A DNA stretch of 64,000 nt from Nannocystis pusilla (GCF_049337375.1 NZ_JBMPIV010000001.1); one strand, 5' to 3'. Positions 2,649 through 62,155 are shown, counted from the first letter of the stretch. A program made the numbers and translations. The notes: generated by a model not told the origin, from the sequence alone.

Positions 2649-3460
2649 CGGGGCGCCCGATCGCCATCGTGACGGGGGCCTCGGCGGGGCTCGGCGAGAC
2701 GTTCGCGCGGGCGATCGCCGCGCACCCGGCGTTCGCCGACCTGGCGCAGATCTGGCTCGTCGCGCGCCGCGAGCAGCGCCTGCACGCGATCGCGCGCGAG
2801 CTGCCGCGCGGGCTCGGGGTGCCGATCACGGCCGATCTGGCGACGCCGGCCGGGACCGAGGCCGTGCTCGCGCGCGTGCGAGACGAACGACCTGCCGTGC
2901 GCCTGTTCGTGGCGAGCGCCGGCGTCGGGTACCTCGGGCCATTCGCCGACCAGGACGCCGAATCGCTGGCGCGCATGCTCGACCTGAACATTCGCGCACT
3001 TTCCTTGCTGACACACGGGATTTTGCCCTGGATGCCCCGCGGCTCGCAGCTGGTGCTGGTCGCATCTGCGGCGGGGTATGTGCCTTCGCCCTATTTCGCG
3101 GCCTATGCAGCGAGCAAGAGCTTCGTGATCTCTCTGGCGTATGCGCTGCGCGAGGAGCTGCGGCCGCGTGGGATCGAGGTGTGCGCAGTGTGTCCAGGGC
3201 CGGTGGCGACCGAGTTCTTCGCGCTCGCCGGCGTGCGTGGGCCGATCTCCGAGGCCGCGACGCCGGAGCGGGTGGTGGCCCTAGCGCTGCGCGACGCGCT
3301 GGCCGGACGGGCCGTATCGCACGACGGCGTGGCCTCGGCTCTGGTGGCGCTGCTCGCCCGCGCGTTGCCGCGGCGGACGCTCGCCTGGCTCGCCGGTCGT
3401 CGCAATGTGCGACGTTCTCCCGCCACTGGTGCCACTCGCGGCGGACGCGAAGGCGCGTAA
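2645..3460 (+). CDS. Short-chain dehydrogenase/reductase (SDR) family oxidoreductase
   Basis: TGASAGLG Rossmann motif and a Y-x3-K catalytic pair (YAASK). The ATG overlaps the stop of the preceding gene (ATGA). Confidence 0.8.
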   Translation: MTGRPIAIVTGASAGLGETFARAIAAHPAFADLAQIWLVARREQRLHAIARELPRGLGVPITADLATPAGTEAVLARVRDERPAVRLFVASAGVGYLGPFADQDAESLARMLDLNIRALSLLTHGILPWMPRGSQLVLVASAAGYVPSPYFAAYAASKSFVISLAYALREELRPRGIEVCAVCPGPVATEFFALAGVRGPISEAATPERVVALALRDALAGRAVSHDGVASALVALLARALPRRTLAWLAGRRNVRRSPATGATRGGREGA

Positions 3461-3578
3461 AATCCGGGGGTCGGGCGAGAAAGCGAGCGGGCGAAATCCC
3501 CAGGATTGCCAAGCGCGAGGGCCCGTGCAAAAACCATAACCCCACGGCCCTTCAGCCTGGCAAATCCCTGGCTTTCCC

Positions 3579-4928
3579 ATGTCTTCTCTTCCCCAACTCG
3601 ACGCGATCGCGACCCTGCTGAACCAGGGCGCCGCGGATTCGGCGGTCCGCTTGTTGCGAAGCTGTTGGGAGCCCGATCTCCCGCCCGACGACCTCGTGCG
3701 GATGTACTGCATGTGGGTCCGCGGGTTGTGTGAGACCGGTGAACTCGACCACGCGCTGACGCTGGCCCGCAGGGCCGCGAACGAATTCCCGCGCGAACCC
3801 GACGTCCTGATCGCGCTCGGCAACGTGCAGGATCTGGTCGGCGACCTCGAGAAGGCCCGCGAGGCGTTCGAATCGGCGATCGATCACGACCCGGGCGGCG
3901 GCCTGCAGCACTACAACCTCGGCGCGGTGCTCGAGCGACTCGGGCGCGAGATGGACGCGGAGGTCTGTTATCGCCGAGCCAACGAGTGCGACCCGCATGG
4001 CGGGATGTACGAGGCGATCGCGGCGCTCGGGGCGTTGCTGCGGCGCCAGGGTCGGCTCGAAGAGGCCGAACAGATCTACGACCTCTACCTCAGCGACGAC
4101 TCGATCAACGTCGAGATCCTGGTCGAGCACGGCATCTGTCTGTCCGACCTCGACCGCCTCGACGAGGCGATCGATCGCTTCGACTTCGCGCTGAGCCTCG
4201 ACCCCGAGAACGCGGGGGCGCAGTACAACAAGGCGATCACGCTCTATCGCCTCGGTCGCTACGAGCAAGCCCTGGGCGCGCTCGAGCGGGCCCGCCAGCT
4301 CGACAAGGGCAACGCGCTCACGCTCGCGGTGCTCGGCGGCTGGCGCCTGTCGGCCGCCGATTGCGACCTCGACGAGGCGCTCGGCCTGCTCTACGGCGCG
4401 CTCGATCTGCTCGAGCGGCGCTACGCCCAGGACCCCGGGCAGCTCGGCTACTGCAGCCTGGTCGCGGAGGAGATCTTCGAAGCGCTGTGGCAGAACGGCC
4501 GCCAGGGCGAGGCCCGCGAGGTCGCGCGGCTGGCCGGCCAGCGCGAGTGGATCACGCCGCACATCCTCGACTGTCTCAACGAGGCCGACCACGGGCGCTC
4601 GCCGCAGGTCAGCATGTACACGGTGGTCGCTCGCGCGGAGGCCGGCGAGCGGCCCGAGCACTGGCCCGAGAACACCGACGGCTACACCACCGGTTTGACC
4701 GTGCTGGCCACCGACGAGAACGAGGCGCGCGAGTTCTGCCTGCAGTATCTGCGGTCGATCGAGCCGTCGCCCGACATCCGCTTCACCCTCGACGTGGTGC
4801 CGCCGCAGTCACCGAGCGACCCGAGCCCGTCGCTCGAGATGATGGCCGAGCTGCGCGGCGCGATGCAGCCGCGGCCGCGCGGCGTCGCGCGAGTCCACGG
4901 CCAGCGGGCTTATACGTTCCGCACCTGA
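3579..4928 (+). CDS. Tetratricopeptide (TPR) repeat protein
   Basis: Multiple TPR-like A/Y/L repeat units (e.g. AQYNKAITLYRLGRYEQALGALERARQLD) and no enzymatic domain. Confidence 0.7.
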   Translation: MSSLPQLDAIATLLNQGAADSAVRLLRSCWEPDLPPDDLVRMYCMWVRGLCETGELDHALTLARRAANEFPREPDVLIALGNVQDLVGDLEKAREAFESAIDHDPGGGLQHYNLGAVLERLGREMDAEVCYRRANECDPHGGMYEAIAALGALLRRQGRLEEAEQIYDLYLSDDSINVEILVEHGICLSDLDRLDEAIDRFDFALSLDPENAGAQYNKAITLYRLGRYEQALGALERARQLDKGNALTLAVLGGWRLSAADCDLDEALGLLYGALDLLERRYAQDPGQLGYCSLVAEEIFEALWQNGRQGEAREVARLAGQREWITPHILDCLNEADHGRSPQVSMYTVVARAEAGERPEHWPENTDGYTTGLTVLATDENEAREFCLQYLRSIEPSPDIRFTLDVVPPQSPSDPSPSLEMMAELRGAMQPRPRGVARVHGQRAYTFRT

Positions 4929-32258: not shown

Positions 32259-32330
32259 TGGGGCGTCGGCAAGTGGTAAGCCAGCGGTTTTTGGTTCCGC
32301 CATTCGTAGGTTCGAATCCTACCGCCCCAA
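32259..32330 (+). tRNA. tRNA-Gln (anticodon TTG); CCA not encoded
   Basis: The cloverleaf was read by hand. Acceptor TGGGGCG/CGCCCCA; anticodon loop TTTTGGT, giving anticodon TTG; T-arm GTAGG-TTCGAAT-CCTAC. It closely parallels E. coli tRNA-Gln(UUG) and has the conserved tRNA-prs-ctc-pth synteny. Confidence 0.8.
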
Positions 32331-44879: not shown

Positions 44880-47831
<2,952 letters not shown>

Positions 47832-47832
47832 A

Positions 47833-47913
47833 GTTGTCCTGAAAGACAGGCCGGTTCGGACATGCCCGGACGGGCATGCTGTATACGACATGCCCGCAAG
47901 GACATGTCCTTGA
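47833..47913. repeat. 14-bp-period repeat (about 5 units) between the SNF2 helicase and the FG-GAP gene
   Basis: gacaggccggttcg / gacatgcccggacg / ggcatgctgtatac / gacatgcccgcaag / gacatgtccttgag. Confidence 0.85.
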
Positions 47914-47915
47914 GG

Positions 47916-49265
47916 CTAGGGCCGGTTGACGGCGATGGTGATCGAGGAGATCCCGCTGCCGAGGCCGATGATGTCGGGGCTGCCGTCGCCCTCGAGGTCG
48001 GCGACGTGGAGCCCGTCGCCCTCGTTCAGGAGCTGGAGATAGGCTGTCATGTGCGGGGCGAAGCCCCCCTGGCCGTCGCCGCGGCGGATCGACACGGGGC
48101 CGGTGCCGGCGGTGACGAGGTCGAGGGCGCCGTCGCTGTCGAGGTCCCCGGCGGCGAGGAGGCGGGCGCCGCAGTGGACCGGGTAGCGGGCCGGGAGCGG
48201 GAAGTCGCCGTTCTTCTGCAGGAAGATGACGAGCTCGCTGGTCTCGAATTCGGTGTTGGTGGCGACGCCCGCGAGGTCGCCGAGGCCGTCGCCGTCGAGG
48301 TCGGCGACGACGAAGTCGTGGAACCATAGCTCGGCCGGCATGCTCGGGGCGGAGGTCGTCTGGACGTTGCCCTGGTGGCGGACGAGCGTGCCGCTGCCGC
48401 CCTGGGTGAACACGAAGTCGTCGGCGCGGCCGTCGCCGTCGAGGGCGCCGAGGACGTAGCCGGGCGTGGCCTGCTCGAGGGCCGGGCCGACGCTCTCCGT
48501 GAAGTCGCCGGTGCCGTCGCCGAGCAGGACGACGAGGCCGTCGAGCGCCTCGGTGTGGGCGACGGTGATGATGTCGAGGTGGCCGTCGTCGTTCCAGTCG
48601 ACCGCGTCGAGGGTCATGACGTTGTCGGCGAGGTGGACGACCTGGTCGTCGGCGAGGCCGCCCTGGCCGTCGAGGAAGAGGACGTGGACGCTGACGCCGT
48701 CGACGCCGATCGAGTGGGCGAGGACGTCGAGGACGCCGTCCTCGTCGAAGTCGCCGCTGGCGCGCACGACGGGCTGGTCGCCGATCGACTGCGGCCACGG
48801 CTTCGAGTCCGAGGTCGTCGGCGCGAACAGCTGGGCGCCGAGGGTGCCGTCGGCGAAGGTCATGAGCAGGTCGGGGCCATGGAGATCGTCGAGCGGGAGG
48901 ACGAGGCTCGAGGTGACCGGCTGCGAGCCGAAGCCGAGGGTGCCGAGGATGCACAGCTCGCCCGCCACGAACTGGCCGTCGAAGCAGGTGGCCTCGGCGG
49001 CGAAGCTGTCGACGAGCTCGCAGGTGCCGAGCTCGCCGCCGGTGTCGGTGGGATCGGTGTCGCTGTCGGGGGCGCCGGTGTCGGTGGTGGGTGCGCCCGA
49101 GTCGGTGGCGGGTCCGTCGGTGGTGTCGCCGGGTCCCTCGGAGGTGTTGCCGGAGCCGCCGCCGGAGGCGTGCTCGCAGTCGCCGATGCAGTGCTTGATA
49201 TCGAGGTCACAGGCGGGGAGGAGAGAGAGGAGGATAGGGAGGGTCGAGAGCGGAGGGATACGCAT
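47916..49265 (-). CDS. FG-GAP repeat (integrin-alpha-like beta-propeller) lipoprotein
   Basis: Lipobox LSLLPAC, an Asp/Thr-rich linker, and repeated DxDGDGxxD calcium-binding FG-GAP blades. Confidence 0.75.
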   Translation of the reverse strand: MRIPPLSTLPILLSLLPACDLDIKHCIGDCEHASGGGSGNTSEGPGDTTDGPATDSGAPTTDTGAPDSDTDPTDTGGELGTCELVDSFAAEATCFDGQFVAGELCILGTLGFGSQPVTSSLVLPLDDLHGPDLLMTFADGTLGAQLFAPTTSDSKPWPQSIGDQPVVRASGDFDEDGVLDVLAHSIGVDGVSVHVLFLDGQGGLADDQVVHLADNVMTLDAVDWNDDGHLDIITVAHTEALDGLVVLLGDGTGDFTESVGPALEQATPGYVLGALDGDGRADDFVFTQGGSGTLVRHQGNVQTTSAPSMPAELWFHDFVVADLDGDGLGDLAGVATNTEFETSELVIFLQKNGDFPLPARYPVHCGARLLAAGDLDSDGALDLVTAGTGPVSIRRGDGQGGFAPHMTAYLQLLNEGDGLHVADLEGDGSPDIIGLGSGISSITIAVNRP

Positions 49266-49364
49266 GGTGGCCTTTCAGCGAGTGAGTGCCTCGGGGCTCG
49301 AGGTTCCGTTCGCCGATCTTCGCGCCTTCGCTGCGGCGGTGATCGAGGTAGCCGCGCGCGTCAC

Positions 49365-49745
49365 GCATGTCCCTTCGGACAGAGTCTCTGCTACCCCGTG
49401 CCGAAGTCTCGCCGCTCCAGAAGACCGCCGCCCCCGAGCGGTGAGATGTCTAAAGGGACAGGTTCGCGGGCCGAGGAACATGTGCGGAAGGGTCGCGGCG
49501 CGGGGGTCGAGCGATGAGGTGTCTAAAGGGACAGGTTCGCGGGCTGAGGCATATGTGCGGAGGGTCGAGTCGCGGGCGTTCGCGCGGTGAGATGTCTACA
49601 TGGACAGGTTCTCGGGCCGACGCACATGTACGGAAGGGTCGCGTCGCAGGCGGTCGAGCGATGAGATGTTTTTAAAAGGGACGGGTTATCGGGCCGAGGC
49701 AGATGCCGCGGGAGAGCGAACGGACAGGTCGTAAAGGACAGGTCT
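49365..49745. repeat. Higher-order tandem array: about 4.5 units of about 73 bp, each built from 14-bp subunits of the dispersed family
   Basis: The units start near 49436, 49509, 49582 and 49656 (cgagcgRTGAGRTGTCTAAAGGGACAGGTTCGCGGGCYGAGG.ACATGTGCGGAAGGGTCGCG...). There is a degenerate copy at 49365-49435. Confidence 0.85.
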
Positions 49746-49774
49746 GCCGAGACCGCGGGCGCCGAGCGACGCGC

Positions 49775-50974
49775 TCAGGAGCGGCACAGCGCGGATACCC
49801 GCGCGGCCAGGGCGGAGGCGGGCCAGCGGGCGAGGAATGCGGCGGCTTCGCGGCGGGCGCGGTCGTGTTCGCCGAGACGGCAGCGGGCCTCGATCGCGGC
49901 GGCGGCGGTCTCCTGGGCGAACACGCCGGCGGGGAAGCGCCGCTGGTGGCGGGCGACCAGCTCGAGGGTGGTGCGGTCGTCGGCGGCGAGCAACGCGGCG
50001 CGGATCGATTCGACGAGGTCGAGCTCCGCGGCCAGCGAGGGCTCCTCGCCGCGAGAGCGGCGCGCGGGCGCGGGGGGAGCGGGCGGGGCGGAGGCGGGCG
50101 GGGCCGGGGTGACGGCGGCCGCGAGCGCGACCGGCTGCGATCCCGGCTGCGACTGCACGGGCGCGGGCTCGTGGGCCGGGGCGACGACCGACGGCGGCGG
50201 CTCGGGCGGTGAAGGGCGGCCGAACGCCAGCACGGCGAAGAGCCCGGCGCCGGCGACCGAGAGGCCGACGACCGGGCTGCCGCCGGCGATCGCGGCCGGG
50301 GTTGCGATATGACTCATCGACCATGTCTTTGCGAGCATGTCCGAGACGACAGCCGGATCGCGCGCGGCGGCCAGGCGCCACGGCGGCGGCCCGGGCGGAC
50401 CGACCGCGACCAGCGCGGCGAGCACGTGGGCGCCCCGGCGCGGCCGGACCCGGCGATCGCGGGCGTCGAGGCGGCGGACCATGCGGTCGAGCTCGCGCCG
50501 GGCGGCGCGCAGGCGCGAGTAGACGGTGTTGAGGTTGACGCCGAGCTCAGCGGCGATCTCGGGGGCCTGCCACTGCTCGAGCTCGGTCATGACGAAGACG
50601 ACGGCCTGATCGCGGTCGAGGCCGTCGAGGAAGCCCTGGAGGATCGCGGCCGCCTCGGCCTGCTCGACGGGGGCCGCGACGGCGGGGGCGAGGACCTCGG
50701 CCTCGCTCAGCGCGCAGCGGCGCGGCTCCTCGCGCGCGGCGCTGCGCCGGTAACGGCTGGCGACGCGCCGCGCGATCTCGAACAACCAGGTGCGCAGCGC
50801 GGCCCGACCGGCGAACTCGGGCAGGCGGCGGTAGACGACCAGGAAGGTGTCCTGGACGGCGTCGTCGACCCGCGCCGGCTCGACGCCGAGGTGCCGGATG
50901 GTGCGCCAGACGAAGCCGTAGTTCGCGCGGTAGACGGCGGCGAAGTCGGGGAGGGCTTCCTGGGGGAGCGGCAC
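49775..50974 (-). CDS. ECF (sigma-70 group IV) sigma factor in one frame with a C-terminal TM plus anti-sigma-like domain. This is either a fusion or two genes with an unrecognised boundary.
   Basis: Sigma region 2 (FAAVYRANYGFVWRTIRHLG...DAVQDTFLVVYRRL) and region 4 (LGVNLNTVYSRLRAARREL). These are followed by a TM helix (AAIAGGSPVVGLSVAGAGLFAVLAFG) and an Ala-rich periplasmic part. A 14-bp repeat sits at the junction (50306-50350). Confidence 0.65.
   Translation of the reverse strand: MPLPQEALPDFAAVYRANYGFVWRTIRHLGVEPARVDDAVQDTFLVVYRRLPEFAGRAALRTWLFEIARRVASRYRRSAAREEPRRCALSEAEVLAPAVAAPVEQAEAAAILQGFLDGLDRDQAVVFVMTELEQWQAPEIAAELGVNLNTVYSRLRAARRELDRMVRRLDARDRRVRPRRGAHVLAALVAVGPPGPPPWRLAAARDPAVVSDMLAKTWSMSHIATPAAIAGGSPVVGLSVAGAGLFAVLAFGRPSPPEPPPSVVAPAHEPAPVQSQPGSQPVALAAAVTPAPPASAPPAPPAPARRSRGEEPSLAAELDLVESIRAALLAADDRTTLELVARHQRRFPAGVFAQETAAAAIEARCRLGEHDRARREAAAFLARWPASALAARVSALCRS
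50306..50350. repeat. Three 14-bp units (atatgactcatcgacc atgtctttgcgagc atgtccgagacgac) in frame at the sigma / anti-sigma junction
   Basis: Read directly from the sequence. Confidence 0.7.
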
Positions 50975-50995: not shown

Positions 50996-52570
50996 TCAGC
51001 GATTCCGTGGCCCGAATTGCAGGTCGAGGCCGAAAGTGGTGCGCAGGCCCGCGCGGCCGCCGCGGTACACCTCTTCAGCGCCGACGGTGAAGATCGGGCG
51101 GTTGACGGCCACGAGTCCCTCGACGGCCAGCCACAGGCCGAGCGGGCCGGCGACCCGCCAGCGCAGCGCGGGGCCGAGGAAGAAGCTGGCCCACGGGGCC
51201 CATCGCGGGTTCGGGACGGTGACGTCGCGGGCGACGCCGTGGAGCGCACCGACCTCGAGGCCGGCGCACAGGAGGACGGCGAGCGCCGGGCGCGGGTGCA
51301 GGGTCGGACAGAGCCGCACGACCCCGCCGAGGCGGTCGAAGCGGCCGCCGGGGCGCTCGCTGTCGCCTGGGAGGATCCGGCCGGGCGCGCCCACGAGGCC
51401 GGCCTCGAGGCGCAGGCGCGGCAAGGTGACGCCGCCGAACACGCCGACGAGGCCCCCGACGCCGGGGAGGACGCCGACGTCGAGGCCGCCCTCGAGGCGG
51501 AGGTGGCCGAGCACGCGCGGCGGTGCGGCCGGCCGGGGCGTTCGCGCGGCGGAGAACTCGGCTGTCTCTTCGGACATGTCCTCGGGGGCGAGCGGGCGCG
51601 ACGGCCCGGCGGGCGGTCGCGGGGGCGCGGGCGAGGTGAGCCGGCCTGCGGGTGAGGAGGTCGGGTCTGGCCGGAAGGACAGGTCGGGAGCGGCGGGGAT
51701 CGAGGGGGCGCGGGCCGGGTCGGACGCGAGGGGGTCGGGCGGCAGGAGCGGCGGGACCGGCCTCGTGGGCGACTCGGGTGGAGTGGGGGATGTCCGCGAG
51801 GACAGGTCGGTGGGCGAGGCCGGATCGGACGCGGAGGTCGTGGATGGCCGCGGGGCCAGGTCGGTGGGCGGGGCCGTGCCGGGCGGAGAGGAGGTCGTGG
51901 ATGTCCGCGGGGACAGGTCGGTGGACGGGTTGCCGGGCGGGGAGGTCGTGGATGTCCGCGGGGACAGGTCAAAGGGGCCCGGCGACGGGATCTTGGCTGT
52001 CCCGGAGGACAGGTCGGGCGGCAGGGCCGGGGGCGCGGGCGGGGCGACGGCGACCGCGGGCAGACCGCGGGCGACGCCCAGGGGGTCGAGGTGGATGGCG
52101 ATCAGGAGGGCGGCGGCGCGCGCGAGGATCGGGCAGCTCTCGGCGCGGACGGTGCGGCGGTAGGCGCTGCCCCGCCCACGCAGCACGAGCCGCAGCTCCC
52201 ACGTCGCGGCGGCGCGCGTGACGAGCCCGCGGGCAACGGCGCGACCTGCCGCGTCGTCGCCGGTCGGCTGACGCAGCAGGCCGGCGACCATGTGCAGGAC
52301 GGCGTCGCCGTCGGGGCACTCGCGCGGAGCCTGCCAGGTCAGGTCGACCGGCGGCGCGGCGACCGACGGCGCGGCGGACGAGAGGCGAGCGAACACCAGC
52401 GCGGCGAGGGCGAGCAAGCGAGAGTCCTGGCCCCGGTGATCGTGTCCGGGCAGGCGGGGGGCGTCAACTGTCGGCTGGCGTGCGACCGCGTGGACCGGCG
52501 TGCGGGCGGGGCAGGGCGACAGGTCGCGCGGGCGCGGCCGGGGCGAGACCGGCCGGACCCTGCGATGCAC
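50996..52570 (-). CDS. Hypothetical secreted protein: N-terminal domain, Pro/Ser/Thr-rich 17-18-aa tandem repeats, and a C-terminal region with beta-barrel-like alternating hydrophobicity
   Basis: Repeats of DLSPRTSTTSPPG(N/T)PST and a C-terminal ...GLRTTFGLDLQF... The start is uncertain. It lies 22 nt upstream of the sigma gene. Confidence 0.45.
   Translation of the reverse strand: MHRRVRPVSPRPRPRDLSPCPARTPVHAVARQPTVDAPRLPGHDHRGQDSRLLALAALVFARLSSAAPSVAAPPVDLTWQAPRECPDGDAVLHMVAGLLRQPTGDDAAGRAVARGLVTRAAATWELRLVLRGRGSAYRRTVRAESCPILARAAALLIAIHLDPLGVARGLPAVAVAPPAPPALPPDLSSGTAKIPSPGPFDLSPRTSTTSPPGNPSTDLSPRTSTTSSPPGTAPPTDLAPRPSTTSASDPASPTDLSSRTSPTPPESPTRPVPPLLPPDPLASDPARAPSIPAAPDLSFRPDPTSSPAGRLTSPAPPRPPAGPSRPLAPEDMSEETAEFSAARTPRPAAPPRVLGHLRLEGGLDVGVLPGVGGLVGVFGGVTLPRLRLEAGLVGAPGRILPGDSERPGGRFDRLGGVVRLCPTLHPRPALAVLLCAGLEVGALHGVARDVTVPNPRWAPWASFFLGPALRWRVAGPLGLWLAVEGLVAVNRPIFTVGAEEVYRGGRAGLRTTFGLDLQFGPRNR
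51570..52015. repeat. Coding DNA tandem repeats (about 51-54-bp units) composed of GGACAGGTC / GGATGTCC subunits related to the 14-bp family
   Basis: For example, gaggtcgtggatgtccgcggggacaggtcggtggacgggttgccgggcggg repeated 4-5 times. Confidence 0.75.
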
Positions 52571-61925: not shown

Positions 61926-62003
61926 AGGTCCGCGGTGACGATGGGCGCCGGGCCCGTTCGTCGGCAGGATGAGGCCCGGCTCGACGGCGGACGCGGCATG
62001 GCT

Positions 62004-62155
62004 CGCTGGACATGTCATCAAGAACATGCTCGATAGAGCATGCTCTCATGAGCATGTTCATCGAGACATGGCCGGGAGGGCAGGTGTGTCCGGGGCCCGG
62101 CGCGCCTCACGAGCATGTTCTTCGAGTCATGGCCGTGAGGGCATGTGCGTCCGGG
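62004..62155. repeat. Long 14-bp-period repeat cluster (about 10 units) including an internal duplication of about 48 bp, overlapping the 3' end of the TPR/kinase-associated gene
   Basis: gacatgtcatcaa gaacatgctcgata gagcatgctctcat gagcatgttcatcg agacatggccggga ... gagcatgttcttcg agtcatggccgtga gggcatgtgcgtcc. Confidence 0.85.

Follow-up and report, generated by a model that had tools for sequence, protein, structure and literature searches.

The tandem array that lies between the genes for an ECF sigma factor and an FG-GAP repeat lipoprotein in Nannocystis pusilla is lineage-specific and non-coding, and our analysis suggests that it is probably a near-neutral minisatellite, or a BIME-like amplification, raised on a REP-like palindromic family. 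The array is made of 73-bp units that draw in part on a 14-bp family with genomic habits of its own, it is absent from the relatives we compared, and what these relatives do share with the window is a conserved block next to the FG-GAP gene. The effect of the array is probably nil or non-specific, acting for example through the length of the spacer or through a few extra weak family sites, and we infer that the array has no specific function. Judged by sequence comparison, it appears dispensable for the FG-GAP gene, whose control region would be the conserved 55-bp block.

The array and the spacer that holds it

The window, by which we mean the whole 64,000-nucleotide stretch of DNA that was analyzed, has a GC content of 72%. 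The array lies inside a spacer of 509 bp, downstream of the stop codon of the sigma gene and upstream of the start codon of the FG-GAP gene. The ECF sigma factor gene (49775..50974, minus strand, 399 aa) matches Pfam Sigma70_r2 and Sigma70_r4_2 and NCBIfam TIGR02937, the last with a score of 72.6 bits (cutoff 42.9), and its product carries a C-terminal extension of about 235 aa with a Pro-rich linker and a hydrophobic stretch that, judged by inspection only, is probably membrane-spanning. The FG-GAP repeat lipoprotein gene (47916..49265, minus strand, 449 aa) matches Pfam FG-GAP_3 with E = 3.8e-22; its product is 100% identical to a Nannocystis pusilla protein and shows a lipobox, MRIPPLSTLPILLSLLPAC, in its N-terminus. 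The domain matches and the lipobox confirm the initial annotation, which had placed a sigma gene on one side of the array and an FG-GAP lipoprotein gene on the other. As the two genes are both read from the minus strand, the array follows the 3' end of the sigma gene and precedes the 5' end of the FG-GAP gene. It had been placed correctly 3' of the sigma gene but wrongly "immediately 5'" of the FG-GAP gene, since it begins 170 bp upstream of the start codon.

Tandem Repeats Finder (TRF) reported a single array at 49435..49705, with a period of 73, 3.7 copies, 81% matches and a score of 343, and a repeat finder agreed on the register. The units are U1 (49435-49507), U2 (49508-49580), U3 (49581-49654) and a partial fourth (49655-49705). 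The pairwise identity of the three full units is 82-89%, and their alignment scores are 76-99, compared with a mean of 4.8 and a maximum of 14 for shuffled sequences. This is the composition of a minisatellite, with head-to-tail units of about 10-100 bp whose similarity is above chance. The earlier description of four and a half contiguous units of about 73 bp with 80-90% identity was right in the tandem arrangement and in the identity; the number was too high, as TRF finds three full units and about 0.7 of a fourth. Its further claim that each unit consists of five 14-16-bp subunits of one family was overstated. With a weight matrix derived from 951 canonical cores, all members of the 14-bp family, we recognized three cores per unit (TGAGATGTCT, GGACAGGTTC and GAACATGTGC, with a spacing of 14/20/39 bp) and none in the remaining 39 bp or so, and the block is therefore only in part built from the 14-bp element. 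The cores within the units are degenerate and off the strict 14-bp register of the family.

The extent first given to the array, 49365-49745, proved too wide at both ends. At one end, 49365-49434 fails to align to the units, and most of it is a 66-bp segment (49366..49431) that holds no array unit by unit alignment, is inverted by BLAST relative to other strains and has the canonical palindrome CATGTCC-CTTC-GGACAG at its end (49366-49383). At the other end, 49722..49745 is a mini-array of its own, separate from the 73-bp array and made of two family cores in exact 14-bp register, GGACAGGTCG TAAA GGACAGGTCT on the plus strand, with weight-matrix scores of 8.1 and 9.6. This pair begins 29 nt past the sigma stop codon, which is the canonical post-stop location of the family, and it is kept in two of the related loci described below (L001 and L126), with related pairs in two others (L004 and L002).

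The array is non-coding, since its period of 73 bp does not make a whole number of codons and its GC content by phase is flat (0.59/0.62/0.67), and on these grounds a coding repeat was rejected. In contrast, a 54-bp repeat of 3.4 copies at 51788-51970 looks coding. It lies within an ORF (50996-52570, minus strand) whose third-position GC is 0.84-1.0 throughout, and it encodes Pro/Ser/Thr-rich repeats of 18 aa with the motif DLSPRTS. The DNA that encodes this motif is a family-like palindrome (GACCTGTCC…GGACATCC), so that the family motif is also present in coding DNA. DLSPRTS recurs in N. exedens (L002, ~3440-3640), and the coding periods of 54, 48 and 63 are multiples of 3. A structured RNA, riboswitch or sRNA was rejected as well. 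Rfam gave no match at E <= 1 over 49150-49850, its sole match in the whole window at gathering thresholds was a tRNA gene (32259-32330), and the array folds like shuffled sequences, with z = -0.13 and -0.15 and with individual units between -0.3 and +0.3. No sigma-70-like promoter was found within the array.

The 14-bp palindromic family

Each unit of the family joins a palindromic core of 10 bp, GGRCATGYCC, to a spacer of four variable bases, and the units keep a strict 14-bp register; this consensus was derived from 176 and from 951 units. Within the window, TGTC-N6-GACA occurs 27 times compared with 0.63 expected from shuffles. We scanned 185,579 species genomes with a three-core pattern, for which the calculated chance expectation is ~0.03, and found at least 120 matching stretches. 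By the 120 matches listed, 116 of which are from Nannocystis (exedens, pusilla, punicea, bainbridge, radixulma, RBIL2 and metagenome-assembled genomes), the family is restricted to this genus. The other four listed matches (L066, L078, L093 and L114) come from an alphaproteobacterial MAG, a 'Polyangiaceae' MAG, a Nocardiopsis contig and a deltaproteobacterial MAG; in L066 the spacers that separate its four cores are all CGCG, and mis-binning, transfer or convergence are possible explanations for the four. The pattern had 0 matches in viral contigs. We found no published account of the family in the searchable literature.

The register of the family is exact. In ~1.05 Mb, core-to-core distances of 14, 28, 42, 56 and 70 bp were counted 362, 217, 141, 50 and 12 times, and distances of 13 or 15 bp not once. 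The cores form arrays of 2-8, mostly at gene 3' ends, and the genes flanking these arrays are convergent in 145 cases, tandem in 170 and divergent in 26. An array was present in 48% of 230 convergent junctions and in 4% of 212 divergent ones, and the first core lies most often -5 to +20 nt from the stop codon (205 of 460 measurements); as the loci were chosen for holding one perfect array, the absolute rates are inflated and the ratios are unaffected. The unselected 64-kb window agrees with this picture and contains 17 phased arrays. This density of about one phased array per 4 kb extrapolates to a few thousand per Nannocystis genome (11-13 Mb, 72% GC). The largest canonical cluster of the window (61994-62148) has ~10 cores between convergent genes, includes a 61-bp x2 higher-order repeat and folds with z = -4.95.

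Several observations bear on what is conserved in the family. At 47830-47909 in the window, the convergent FG-GAP and SNF2 genes are separated by a spacer that is taken up by six cores in exact 14-bp register, and at the orthologous junction in five other lineages (L004, L126, L002 and L128 among them) the CATG and the register are kept and the spacers diverge. Adjacent 4-nt spacers within one array are identical in 7% of cases and mostly unrelated, and adjacent cores show no R/Y pairing covariation (odds ratio 1.06). Since CATG and register are kept where the spacers diverge, and covariation was not found, the cores look constrained as sequence and not merely as stems. As RNA, canonical arrays form strong folds whichever strand is taken (z = -3.5 to -8.3), and they are followed by no enrichment of T in a run. 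The elements have no orientation bias relative to genes (CAGG 51 vs CCTG 43, with symmetric spacers); GACAGGT is in excess on the plus strand of the window (18 vs 5), largely because of copies inside tandem arrays. Avoidance of CATG, as a signature of restriction-modification, was rejected, CATG being observed 238 times against 162-181 expected. At window positions 1461, 14193, 51577 and 53843, ORF starts coincide with the ATG of a core CATG centre (GGACATGTCC), and this coincidence may either be an artefact, produced by choosing the first in-frame start codon, or reflect a genuine overlap of element and gene start.

Relatives, origin and possible roles of the array

The spacer was compared with syntenic loci of N. 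pusilla Na p29 (L001), N. exedens (L002), L004, L126, L128 and L131, the last from a more distant genome labelled N. pusilla (GCA_020073745.1), and with the non-syntenic locus L132. Across eight syntenic or related loci, conservation is limited to the ~60 bp that follow the sigma stop codon and the ~55-100 bp that precede the ATG. Between these stretches each lineage has a different sequence, and the 73-bp x3.7 array occurs in the window alone. L001 has two copies, 64 bp apart, of a 64-bp derivative that is without the TGTCC..GACA hairpin part, L004 has the 73-bp block in single copy, and L126 and L002 have a run of isolated palindromes. In L128, where the FG-GAP protein is 66% identical, an unrelated 39-bp x3 array (648-763) carries CTGTCC-N4-GGACAG in each unit. 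The whole spacer of L131 (3944-4000) measures 57 bp and consists of the conserved block, GATCGGCGAACGGAACC-N16-TCACTCGCTGAAGG, with no array. The initial annotation had proposed comparing strains for copy-number variation, and the variation is there: 3.7 copies in the window, two in L001, one in L004 and none in L131 (two conspecific genomes).

The part of the spacer that is conserved next to the FG-GAP gene lies at 49266..49320 on the minus strand and reads GATCGGCGAACGGAACC-N16-TCACTCGCTGAAAGGCCACC, followed by the ATG. This 55-bp block (GGAACC-N16-TCACTC) is kept in L001, L002, L004, L126, L128, L131 and L132, and GGAAC-N15-19-CACTC has one occurrence in the whole window. The block fits the pattern of a GGAAC-like -35 element and a short -10 element set 16-17 nt apart, and we regard it as a candidate ECF-type promoter and ribosome-binding site for the FG-GAP gene.

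The single-copy block of L004 suggests how the array arose. It contains two family cores, GGACATTTTC and GTGCATGTCC, 75 bp apart and at positions that match the unit joints. In the window the joints recur every 73 bp and run from …CCGCACATGT directly into TCCTCGGCCCG…, and they can be read as the left half of the second L004 core fused to the sequence after the first core. Slipped-strand mispairing or unequal recombination between short direct repeats would be expected to leave a joint of this structure, and we infer slippage or unequal recombination between cores as the mechanism of duplication. The spacer between the sigma and FG-GAP genes would already have housed a loose cluster of the genus-specific palindromic family, and two cores ~73-75 bp apart would have served as short direct repeats in the lineage of the window strain. 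Slipped-strand mispairing or unequal recombination between them would then have duplicated the bracketed block to ~3.7 copies, and the same unstable spacer would have undergone a 66-bp inversion and a deletion of ~70 bp. The traces of the last two events are a segment at L001 5380-5443 that is 88% identical by BLAST to 49366-49431 in inverted orientation, with L004 likewise inverted relative to the window, and ~70 bp found in the L001 and L004 spacers that are missing from the window. The inversion is bounded by a family palindrome, and palindromic repeats seem to promote such rearrangement. Taken over this one spacer, with its duplications, inversion and deletions, the family appears to drive local rearrangements.

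Similar amplifications occur elsewhere in the genus. In 1.06 Mb we counted ~20 long-period arrays (periods 34-152 bp) whose sequence contains TGTCC-N4-GGACA, and a strain-specific tandem array of ~6 copies of a unit close to CCGCGCGAGCCTGCGAGCCTCCGCCCC fills part of the aldo-keto-reductase/NMT1 spacer of L001 (901-1066) and is not in the window. The frequency of the long-period arrays, together with this array in a neighbouring spacer of L001, indicates that such amplification is routine in the genus, and the independent array of L128 in the same spacer indicates that amplification there is recurrent. The initial annotation had spoken of a recent expansion of the element. The expansion agrees with the single copy in L004, the two 64-bp copies in L001 and the absence of the unit elsewhere; the recency is doubtful, as the units differ by 11-18% and the flanks of the two N. 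pusilla strains are 95-97% identical, so that the expansion is either not very recent or fast-evolving.

A regulatory reading, which we consider unlikely, would make the array a platform on which weak ECF promoters borne by the units, sites for a protein that recognizes the family cores, or both let the copy number tune or insulate the FG-GAP gene, the presumed target of the adjacent sigma factor. Its best evidence is the motif GAACC-N16-TCAY, found in three array units, in all of them on the gene-sense strand, and in the proximal block; the window strands, 128 kb in all, hold one further match, and the ~340 canonical arrays hold none. In L004 the unit's ortholog reads GGAACC, and in 0.96 Mb of other Nannocystis DNA five of the seven matches to the motif fall at the sigma/FG-GAP locus, the total being at expectation (6.5). 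The apparent constraint on the family cores and the independent amplification of repeat modules in this spacer in other lineages point the same way. Repeated amplification of hairpin-plus-linker modules, seen in the window, L001, L128 and probably L126, could reflect selection favouring multiple copies, which runs counter to mere instability, and since canonical cores look selectively maintained, the cores in the array might still bind whatever recognizes them. The comparison with relatives weighs more heavily against a platform: the array and the motif, which matches an ECF promoter loosely, are missing from the conspecific L001 and from L002, L126, L128 and L131, where the block is conserved. 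The unit and the block resemble each other only in the short motif, and a unit duplicated from the promoter block was rejected because the local alignment score of 17 was reached by 112 of 500 shuffles. An autoregulatory GGAAC-N16-TCAC upstream of the sigma operon was rejected too, as none was found in the window. We could not uphold the earlier proposal of a phased array of protein-binding sites serving as the target of the sigma factor, given lineages without the array, a conserved proximal block, and unit cores that are degenerate and out of register. From the motif in three units, a weak promoter-like role may be retained as a residual possibility.

There is also a small chance that the CATG cores in 14-bp register are sites for a Nannocystis-restricted DNA-binding protein that coats gene 3' ends and convergent junctions, with the long-period arrays as expanded platforms. 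Its specificity may be PadR-like (ATGT-N8-ACAT), and it may work as a transcriptional roadblock, as an insulator or as a topological barrier. If this were true, the 73-bp array would be a platform that separates an ECF sigma gene from the gene it likely controls, and its effects on expression would differ from strain to strain.

We hold it to be quite improbable that the array enlarges a role that canonical arrays may have at gene 3' ends and serves the sigma operon as a multi-hairpin terminator, an insulator or a stabilizer of the mRNA 3' end. The post-stop placement of the canonical arrays, their preference for convergent over divergent junctions and their strong folding on both strands fit such a role, and the array does lie downstream of the sigma stop codon. 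The 73-bp units, however, fold no better than shuffles. The canonical arrays are not followed by a T-run, adjacent cores lack pairing covariation, and L131 has its 57-bp spacer with no hairpin array. A terminator scan of 49150-49850 gave one weak site, at 49754-49741 and outside the array, and the GC-rich hairpin with a U-run of an intrinsic terminator was not found.

Repeats are a known source of error in assembly, and a false expansion or a mis-join had to be weighed; we consider it very improbable. The units differ at 11-18% of positions and by indels, and reads would therefore be uniquely placeable. An independently assembled conspecific has a related, different multi-copy structure at the same place, and three further lineages show the single-copy precursor. 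With a real array of diverged units, a collapse of the assembly does not apply.

We consider it just as improbable that the array is a cluster of mobile elements (MITE- or REPIN-like, mobilized by a transposase) or that it is a degenerate CRISPR. Although the 14-bp family is dispersed, palindromic and REP-like, BLAST of the window and ~1 Mb of other Nannocystis DNA gave no copy of the 73-bp unit outside the locus, the units abut without unique spacers (as the initial annotation noted in setting CRISPR aside), the flanking ORFs that were scanned (SNF2, FG-GAP, ECF sigma, NMT1 and aldo-keto reductase) contained neither cas nor transposase domains, and neither a RAYT-like match in 1.09 Mb nor the family pattern in viral contigs was seen. 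A dispersed mobile unit was rejected for want of a second copy in that BLAST search, and a scan of metagenomes with the unit-specific 19-mer GAACCTGTCCCTTTAGACA returned only two unrelated contigs of 53% GC.

As a near-neutral and hypervariable intergenic minisatellite, which remains our preferred reading, the 73-bp array is of little importance in itself. In practice it could be used to type strains of N. pusilla, and it should put assemblers on their guard. The 14-bp family is the more interesting object, being genus-restricted, abundant, strictly phased and apparently undescribed, in a host group in which transcription termination and genome organization are essentially unstudied. Its unusual traits are the 14-bp register, the conserved cores with free spacers, the post-stop placement and the persistence at orthologous junctions across species, and together they suggest either a system that recognizes the sequence specifically or a REP-like element of a new kind.

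Comparison with known systems

The MIRU minisatellites, or VNTRs, of Mycobacterium tuberculosis are tandem repeats of 40-100 bp in the intergenic spacers of operons, and their units recur at ~40 loci per genome. The 73-bp array shares with them head-to-tail units of several dozen bp, a location between two same-strand genes in a high-GC genome, a copy number and structure that vary between close strains, and the lack of an evident RNA or protein product. It differs from them in that the unit is visibly assembled from a smaller palindromic family and was found at one locus only in the window and ~1 Mb of Nannocystis DNA, where a MIRU-like unit would be found at many.

A second likeness is to the higher-order repeats of satellites, in which a longer period comes from an amplified block of diverged shorter repeats; the 73-bp period is of this kind, and its joints fall inside the short repeats. 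The array is, however, tiny (3.7 copies), three of its nominal five subunits are recognizable, and 73 is not an integer multiple of 14.

The canonical arrays of the 14-bp family, in turn, can be set beside operators. The met-boxes of MetJ are tandem operator boxes in strict register, and the family arrays resemble them as palindromic boxes at one exact spacing, whose cores are conserved as the spacers drift. PadR-family operators have the form ATGT-N8-ACAT (PMC3506622). The family junction ATGTCC-N4-GGACAT has this operator geometry, a low-information resemblance that we take as a lead only. The difference from both MetJ and PadR operators is one of place and number, since the family arrays lie outside promoters, behind stop codons and at convergent junctions, and amount to an estimated thousands of sites per genome.

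The closest comparison for the family is with the REP and BIME elements of E. coli and other proteobacteria, some of which lie within 15-20 nt of stop codons (PMC2817692, PMC3733652, PMC12306157) and in which one end bears a conserved tag, GTAG or CGTC (PMC3733652). The family differs from REP elements in its core, a 10-bp perfect-type palindrome centred on CATG, in its exact 14-bp register with free 4-nt spacers, in the absence of a GTAG or CGTC tag from its consensus and of pairing covariation, and in being confined to one genus (116 of the 120 matches listed). No RAYT was detected either: tblastn with the E. coli TnpA-REP, whose sequence was checked against PDB 4ER8, gave a best E of 0.8 in 1.09 Mb, which is only a few percent of the Nannocystis genomes. 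The likenesses are that the family is short, palindromic, extragenic, highly repeated, clustered and concentrated at gene 3' ends, often within 15-20 nt of a stop codon, and the 73-bp array, as the tandem amplification of a composite block, resembles a BIME-2.
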